Assembly: GCF_003334305.1 (NCBI RefSeq)
Contig: NZ_QOWS01000010.1
Strand: one strand, 5' to 3'
DNA length: 64,000 bases
DNA from: Escherichia coli
GTDB lineage: Bacteria; Pseudomonadota; Gammaproteobacteria; Enterobacterales; Enterobacteriaceae
Position numbers and translations under genes: made by a program. Below the pieces are notes generated by a model. The model made no database searches. It saw nothing but the letters and a program-made list of their open reading frames with translations, and was not told the DNA's origin. The stretch's first letter is position 1. Every line of letters begins with the position of its first letter. This document shows, in pieces, positions 47,347-48,184 of the stretch.

Positions 47347-47658
47347 ATGCCTGGAAAAACAGCCACTCTACCCGATGTCGATAAAACGCTGAAAAATGCG
47401 CGGGTCGAACTCAAAACTAGTCCCGACGCCAAAAACAAACTTCGTGAAGCTGCGCAAGCCGTTGGGGTAGATTTAAGCGCTTTTATTTTGAGCGCTGCTA
47501 TGGAACGCGCCGAAAGTGTGCTTGATAACCAACGTCGCCGTGAGCTTTCGAATCAAAGCTGGGAACTGATGAACCAACTCATCGCTGAACCTGCTCAACC
47601 GACGCTCGCCCTCAAGGCGTTAATGAAAAGGAAAAACAGCGATGGTCGACAAGCATGA
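47347..47658 (+). CDS. type II antitoxin, DUF1778 / ribbon-helix-helix family (TacA/AtaR-like), 103 aa
   Basis: ATG 47347 preceded by RBS agagg; N-terminal RHH-like segment ARVELKTSPDAKNKLREAAQAVGVDLSAFILSAAMERAESVL resembles the DUF1778 pattern; 17-nt overlap with the downstream GNAT gene. Not in the K-12 cyoE-yajR interval as I recall it. Confidence 0.72.
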   Translation: MPGKTATLPDVDKTLKNARVELKTSPDAKNKLREAAQAVGVDLSAFILSAAMERAESVLDNQRRRELSNQSWELMNQLIAEPAQPTLALKALMKRKNSDGRQA

Positions 47659-48184
47659 AGAGATTACTCTGCCCATAGTCCTCTCCTGTAATTATCAGTC
47701 TGATATTACTTATCCTGGGCAAAAACAGTTTGATTGCGGTAACCCTGTTATCGATAAATTTGTACGCGCATCGCTAAAGAAAAGTGTGCGTAATAGCGAC
47801 TGTGCGGCTAAAGCACTTATTGACAGACAAAGTGGTGAACTGATCGGCATCTGTACTTTTACGGCATATTCGCTGGAAAAACAACGCGTTTCTGGCGTCC
47901 TTCAGGGTTCACAACCTTCAGAAATTGGTGTTGTCAGATTAGTCATGTTGGGGGTAGCACGGAAGTATCAAAAGCGGGGCTTTGGTCAGGACCTACTATG
48001 TGATTTTTTTGAACATGTAAAAATAATTCACCAGGCATTACCAATTAAAGGGGTTTATCTTGATGCTGACCCTGCCGCCATTAATTTTTATGCTCGTCTC
48101 GGCTTTGTTCAGCTTTCAGCGACACCAAATGCTTTTGGTGCTGTACCTATGTTTTTGGCGATTCAGCATATTCTCGCGGCTTAG
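47642..48184 (+). CDS. GNAT-family acetyltransferase toxin (TacT/AtaT/ItaT/KacT-like aminoacyl-tRNA acetyltransferase), 180 aa
   Basis: Translation has the N-terminal FDCG motif shared with AtaT-type toxins, the acetyl-CoA loop QKRGFGQ, and a C-terminal FYxxxGF segment with the conserved tyrosine; paired with and overlapping a DUF1778 gene. Confidence 0.72.
   Translation: MVDKHEEITLPIVLSCNYQSDITYPGQKQFDCGNPVIDKFVRASLKKSVRNSDCAAKALIDRQSGELIGICTFTAYSLEKQRVSGVLQGSQPSEIGVVRLVMLGVARKYQKRGFGQDLLCDFFEHVKIIHQALPIKGVYLDADPAAINFYARLGFVQLSATPNAFGAVPMFLAIQHILAA

Follow-up and report, generated by a model that had tools for sequence, protein, structure and literature searches.

In the window analyzed here (the whole 64,000-nucleotide stretch of DNA), the gene pair at 47347–48184 is, with next to no doubt, itaR-itaT, a type II toxin-antitoxin operon located on the chromosome of Escherichia coli; itaRT in the window is an already characterized module and not a new one. 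Searching the Protein Data Bank with the 180-aa toxin sequence, we found that it matches chain A of PDB 7BYY at 179 of 180 residues (394.6 bits, E = 4e-118), and the sole mismatch lies at residue 115, where the window encodes G and the crystallized protein has D. 7BYY is ItaT of E. coli HS with the engineered, inactivating substitution G115D (PMC7367177). At the level of the DNA, the window is identical to itaRT of E. coli HS (NC_009800.1, 511857–512694) over 838 of 838 nt, with 0 mismatches, and the window and HS share the gene order cyoE, itaR-itaT, a SEL1/TPR gene, and yajR. The calculated masses of the two proteins (Table 1) agree with the published masses of 11.4 kDa for ItaR and 19.8 kDa for ItaT (PMC6125619). 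Based on the match to 7BYY, the complete nucleotide identity to HS, and the agreeing masses, we conclude that the pair is the itaR-itaT module itself, and none of the evidence contradicts this identification. The regions flanking itaRT are only 99.2 to 99.3% identical between the window and HS, and for this reason the strain from which the window derives is other than HS. Thus, compared to ItaR-ItaT of E. coli HS (Wilcox et al. 2018, PMC6125619; structure in Zhang et al. 2020, PMC7367177), the DNA, both proteins, the 17-nt overlap, and the chromosomal position are the same, and the host strain alone differs, while the crystallized HS protein carries G115D and a His tag.

Table 1. Features of the itaRT locus and the surrounding islet, with positions in the window
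Feature	Position	Strand	Description and basis
cyoE intrinsic terminator	47178..47201	+	10-bp stem followed by a T-run; left boundary of the islet; terminator scan
Low-GC islet	47206..49496	.	2.29 kb; contains itaR, itaT, and the SEL1/TPR gene; blastn against K-12 MG1655
Palindrome 1	47220..47238	.	ATACGGCTAATAACCGTAT; directly upstream of the −35 element; candidate ItaR-ItaT operator (inferred); repeat search
PitaRT	47242..47270	+	Sigma-70-type promoter: TTGACA, 17-nt spacer, TAAATT; 10/12 matches; promoter scan
Palindrome 2	47275..47293	.	ATACGGTTGATAGCCGTAT; just downstream of the −10 element, over the expected transcription start; candidate operator (inferred); repeat search
itaR	47347..47658	+	Antitoxin gene; ATG 47347, stop 47658; 103 aa, 11.36 kDa, pI 9.7; DUF1778/TacA-family ribbon-helix-helix antitoxin
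itaT	47642..48184	+	Toxin gene; ATG 47642, stop 48184; 180 aa, 19.80 kDa; GNAT toxin, aminoacyl-tRNA N-alpha-acetyltransferase
SEL1/TPR-repeat gene	48240..49235	-	Convergent to itaRT; ORF list; RefSeq CDS start at 49175

The Shine-Dalgarno sequence of itaR is AAGAGG at 47336–47341, and AAGGA at 47628–47632 precedes the start of itaT. The two genes overlap by 17 nt (47642–47658) and would thereby be translationally coupled, with itaT depending on itaR. RefSeq annotates both CDSs, with identical boundaries, in E. coli HS and in >1,000 other genomes, in which they are labeled “DUF1778 domain-containing protein” and “GNAT family N-acetyltransferase.” A 125-aa ORF starting from TTG at 47281 was considered as the antitoxin gene and rejected. 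This position lies inside palindrome 2 and downstream of the promoter, and ATG at 47347 was preferred based on its good Shine-Dalgarno sequence, the RefSeq annotation, and the published mass of 11.4 kDa.

A Pfam search, which had been proposed in a first-pass annotation of this DNA as a check for PF08681 and GNAT domains, assigned both proteins as expected. ItaR matched PF08681 (TacA1/DUF1778; E = 1.3e-17, residues 19–96) with a secondary, weaker match to a NikA-like ribbon-helix-helix family, and ItaT matched the GNAT families PF13508, PF13673, and PF00583. The operon, therefore, has a DUF1778/TacA antitoxin gene upstream of, and overlapping with, the toxin gene. The first-pass annotation had placed a ribbon-helix-helix-like region at the N-terminus of the antitoxin; the domain itself was confirmed, but a short N-terminal extension precedes it, so that it begins at approximately residue 16 and not at the very N-terminus. 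All three motifs that it had named in the toxin are present, i.e., FDCG at residues 30–33, QKRGFGQ at 110–116, and FYARLGF at 149–155. The second of these includes the Q/RxxGxG/A acetyl-CoA loop (QKRGFG, residues 110–115), and the third, close to the C-terminus of ItaT, includes the catalytic general-acid tyrosine Y150; the GNAT fold of ItaT has been solved in 7BYY (PMC7367177). Together, the Pfam matches and the motifs bear out the family call made from the sequence, namely, a DUF1778 antitoxin with a GNAT toxin of the aminoacyl-tRNA-acetylating kind, and comparison with the ORF list and the raw sequence showed that the coordinates, lengths, and 17-nt overlap had been given exactly. Searching the PDB by sequence, we found no structure of ItaR; its nearest solved relatives are KacA (46 bits, E = 3.6e-11) and AtaR (39 bits). 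In NCBIfam, neither protein scored above the cut-off, ItaR having only a sub-threshold match to a MobA ribbon-helix-helix model, and PADLOC gave no defense-system match to ItaR or ItaT.

The itaRT genes are located in a low-GC islet (GC content of 42.7% versus 51.5% for the whole window). In K-12 MG1655, the cyoE-yajR intergenic region measures 148 bp, and the islet stands in place of 17 bp of it. The cyoE terminator is the last sequence before the islet that is shared with K-12, and the alignment to K-12 runs without a break to 47205. No mobility gene was identified within the islet at 47206–49496. Among 5,426 complete E. coli genomes, 1,369 (~25%) contain itaRT, nearly always as a single, chromosomal copy, and 1,239 of these 1,369 copies are at least 99% identical. 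The SEL1/TPR gene, which is annotated in RefSeq as encoding a tetratricopeptide or SEL1-like repeat protein, is present in 1,371 of the same 5,426 genomes, and these near-equal counts support that this gene and itaRT travel together. The SEL1/TPR gene is, thus, co-inherited with itaRT, and there is no evidence that it has a part in the toxin-antitoxin mechanism. In the 55-nt itaT-SEL1 intergenic region, the potential hairpin was no better than in shuffled sequences (z = −0.98) and was not followed by a T-run; for these reasons, we do not claim a terminator between the two genes.

Several additional observations concern this islet. The SEL1/TPR protein has an N-terminal signal-like segment and only sub-threshold TPR-type matches in NCBIfam. 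In the 97%-identical lineages represented by TCM3e1 and 100117, the SEL1/TPR gene is a RefSeq pseudogene (frameshift or internal stop), and itaRT is intact. In GB089 (NZ_CP013663.1) and 09-00049 (NZ_CP015228.1), the match to the islet is split in two by an IS3-family insertion that RefSeq names “IS3-like element IS3 family transposase.” Finally, three PLSDB records (CP061270.1, CP099174.1, and NZ_OL790696.1) contain 100% matches to ItaT; these “plasmid” records have sizes of 1.2–4.8 Mb and are probably chromosomal sequences filed as plasmids rather than true plasmid copies of itaRT.

Outside E. coli, the nearest ItaT orthologs are plasmid-borne. On a 97-kb record of Citrobacter freundii (NZ_CP145667.1; locus L005, 2465–3546), the toxin and antitoxin are 78% and 81% identical, respectively, to those of the window, and the pair sits among genes for baseplate, tail, and morphogenesis proteins; this record is probably a phage-plasmid. 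On an 84-kb plasmid of Serratia marcescens (NZ_OW849140.1; locus L006, 896–2034), the corresponding identities are 63% and 62%, and the pair is located ~850 bp from the replication gene repB. The two genes overlap by 17 nt in Citrobacter and by 26 nt in Serratia, in which the antitoxin has a longer N-terminus. That the relatives of itaRT are found on a probable phage-plasmid and next to a rep gene hints at an addiction or anti-phage role of the ancestral module. Along these lines, itaRT could chiefly be an addiction (maintenance) or anti-phage cassette whose fixation took place in a chromosomal islet, with tRNA acetylation mattering mainly after gene loss or during infection and not in stress or persistence. 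Besides the plasmid-borne orthologs, the location of the E. coli copy in a low-GC islet that some strains have and others lack speaks for this scenario. However, no PADLOC defense model matches the pair, and we found no plasmid-stabilization or phage-defense experiment in the ItaRT studies cited here. Consequently, we regard this scenario as possible but rather doubtful; we note that it concerns the role of the module and not its mechanism and is compatible with the identification of the pair as itaRT.

Based on the sequence alone, the first-pass annotation had left the aminoacyl-tRNA target of the toxin open and had listed ItaT among the comparators without recognizing it. That ItaT was not recognized is explained by its distance from the other toxins of this kind: in phmmer comparisons, it scored 30.7 bits against KacT, ~28 bits against AtaT, and ~23 bits against TacT. 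This distance does not make ItaT new. The low scores of 23–31 bits, the lack of an NCBIfam or PADLOC model that names the pair, and the RefSeq label, which is merely “GNAT family N-acetyltransferase,” are what could be expected for a pair distinct from AtaT, ItaT, TacT, and KacT with an open target. This reading is nevertheless extremely improbable, because the protein is identical to ItaT in 7BYY except for the engineered G115D substitution and the DNA is that of the HS locus that was the source of the cloned ItaRT. The alignment to ItaT that the first-pass annotation had itself suggested, giving the 179/180 identity to 7BYY, is therefore sufficient for the claim of an unknown target to fall, as does the 838/838-nt identity to HS.

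Having identified the pair as itaRT, we compared it to the related systems. KacA-KacT of Klebsiella pneumoniae (PDB 5ZGN and 5XUN) likewise consists of a DUF1778 ribbon-helix-helix antitoxin and a GNAT toxin. Of the proteins with solved structures, KacA is the nearest to ItaR, whereas the KacT toxin is distant from ItaT; KacT served as the molecular-replacement model for the ItaT structure, and its target aminoacyl-tRNAs were described as not clarified by the authors of that study (PMC7367177). The AtaR-AtaT and AtaT2 systems, both from E. coli O157:H7, and TacA-TacT from Salmonella have the two-gene architecture in common with ItaRT. AtaT, AtaT2, and TacT also share with ItaT the Q/RxxGxG/A loop, the catalytic tyrosine, and N-alpha-acetylation of aminoacyl-tRNA, and the sequence likeness of ItaT to this group amounts to 23–28 bits. 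The substrate bias differs between these toxins in that AtaT prefers Gly-tRNA and Met-tRNAfMet; AtaT2, TacT, and TacT3 prefer Gly-tRNA; and ItaT prefers Ile-tRNA (PMC9177977). In the same study, AtaT was assigned to clade A, ItaT to clade B, and TacT3 and AtaT2 to clade D. TacT acetylates its own antitoxin; for ItaR, by contrast, no modification that depends on ItaT was detected (PMC6125619).

The experiments that the first-pass annotation had proposed for this pair, i.e., growth arrest by the toxin and rescue by the antitoxin, substitution of the tyrosine, and tRNA mass spectrometry, have all been published for the exact sequence. When itaT is induced with arabinose, E. coli MG1655 stops growing, and within minutes methionine incorporation drops by 80%; growth is restored if itaR is expressed together with itaT, and the ItaT Y150A variant is non-toxic (PMC6125619). 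Similarly, the Y150F and G115D variants have lost toxicity or have reduced toxicity (PMC7367177). ItaR and ItaT co-purify in a roughly stoichiometric manner (PMC6125619). ItaT was reported to acetylate the aminoacyl moiety of Ile-tRNAIle in vitro, and mass spectrometry revealed acetylated Ile-adenosine derived from tRNA, the latter also in PMC7367177 and PMC9177977. Val-tRNAVal and Met-tRNAMet are also ItaT substrates, in vivo and in vitro (PMC7367177). The structure of ItaT revealed a dimeric GNAT protein in which a hydrophobic pocket accommodates the aminoacyl side chain, Y150 is the general acid, and G115 sits in the acetyl-CoA loop (PMC7367177). Based on LC/MS and ribosome profiling, which identified pauses at AUU/AUC codons, the main physiological target is Ile-tRNAIle; ItaT toxicity hits elongation, and peptidyl-tRNA hydrolase counteracts it (PMC9177977). 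We note that the specificity of ItaT differs between studies, in vitro versus in vivo, and was reported as exclusive for Ile in one study and as including Ile, Val, and Met in another. The target question was, thus, answered in 2018–2022 for the exact sequence, with Ile-tRNAIle as the main substrate and Val- and Met-tRNA acetylated more weakly, and the pair in the window opens no new question in this respect. These data also make it most unlikely that the toxin is an ordinary housekeeping GNAT that acetylates protein or small molecules and merely lies beside a small regulator: although the generic GNAT Pfam matches do not tell functions apart, induced expression of the exact protein arrests growth and ItaR relieves this arrest (PMC6125619), and acetylated Ile-adenosine has been recovered from tRNA.

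In summary, ItaT mainly acetylates Ile-tRNAIle, chiefly the GAU isoacceptor, and Val-tRNA and Met-tRNA more weakly. The blocked aminoacyl-tRNA is unusable in elongation, causing ribosomes to pause at AUU/AUC codons and growth to stop, and this toxicity can be countered by overexpressing peptidyl-tRNA hydrolase. In catalysis, Y150 acts as the general acid, and G115 of the Q/RxxGxG/A loop is needed for binding of acetyl-CoA. ItaR neutralizes ItaT by binding it tightly, and the promoter is repressed by the ItaR-ItaT complex and not by ItaR alone. Expression of itaRT in the window strain is assumed. Transcription would initiate from TTGACA-17-TAAATT at 47242–47270, the repressing complex would bind two TACGG-N7-CCGTA palindromes that bracket this promoter, and the gene overlap would link translation of itaT to that of itaR. 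In practical terms, the value of the identification is in annotation; the names itaT and itaR could replace the generic RefSeq labels in the 1,369 of 5,426 complete E. coli genomes.

PitaRT is the only sigma-70-like promoter that the promoter scan detected in the region, and it is located within the upstream fragment that was reported to be repressed by ItaR-ItaT (PMC6125619). In that study, the fragment had a promoter activity of ~40-fold, a PitaRT-galK fusion was repressed ~40-fold by the ItaR-ItaT complex but not by ItaR alone, and repression was independent of acetyltransferase activity (PMC6125619). In the window, PitaRT is bracketed by two imperfect, 19-nt palindromes. The pattern ATACGG-N7-CCGTAT occurs twice in the 64-kb window versus 0.12 expected occurrences, and 0 of 100 shuffled sequences contained two. 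In the 97%-identical E. coli alleles, both palindromes are kept except for one substitution, and most of the other changes are in the promoter spacer. The orthologous loci in Citrobacter and Serratia also have the layout of palindrome, −35/−10 elements, and palindrome; the half-sites TACGG and CCGTA as well as TTGAC are conserved, whereas the promoter spacers and 5′ leaders have diverged.

Judged from sequence and its conservation, the two palindromes are probably the operator of the ItaR-ItaT complex. For AtaRT and KacAT, heterohexamers in which a toxin dimer bridges two antitoxin dimers have been proposed. By analogy, we somewhat favor a scheme in which the palindromes that bracket PitaRT, with a layout kept in the orthologs, would be ItaR-ItaT operators and a pair of ItaR dimers could be held together by an ItaT dimer; with the two sites ~55 bp apart, such bridging would explain why repression needs the toxin. 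A full-text literature search returned no mapped ItaR operator, and PMC6125619 makes no mention of an operator or a palindrome. Among the elements of the locus, this regulatory architecture is the only one for which we found no published description; within an already known system, it is a small point. The conserved palindromes around PitaRT provide a ready hypothesis for the ItaR-ItaT operator.

Elsewhere in the window, at ~57972 in the dxs-yajO intergenic region, the blastn alignment to HS is interrupted. At this position, HS has ~123 bp that are absent from the window, and this extra segment may be a REP-type intergenic element.
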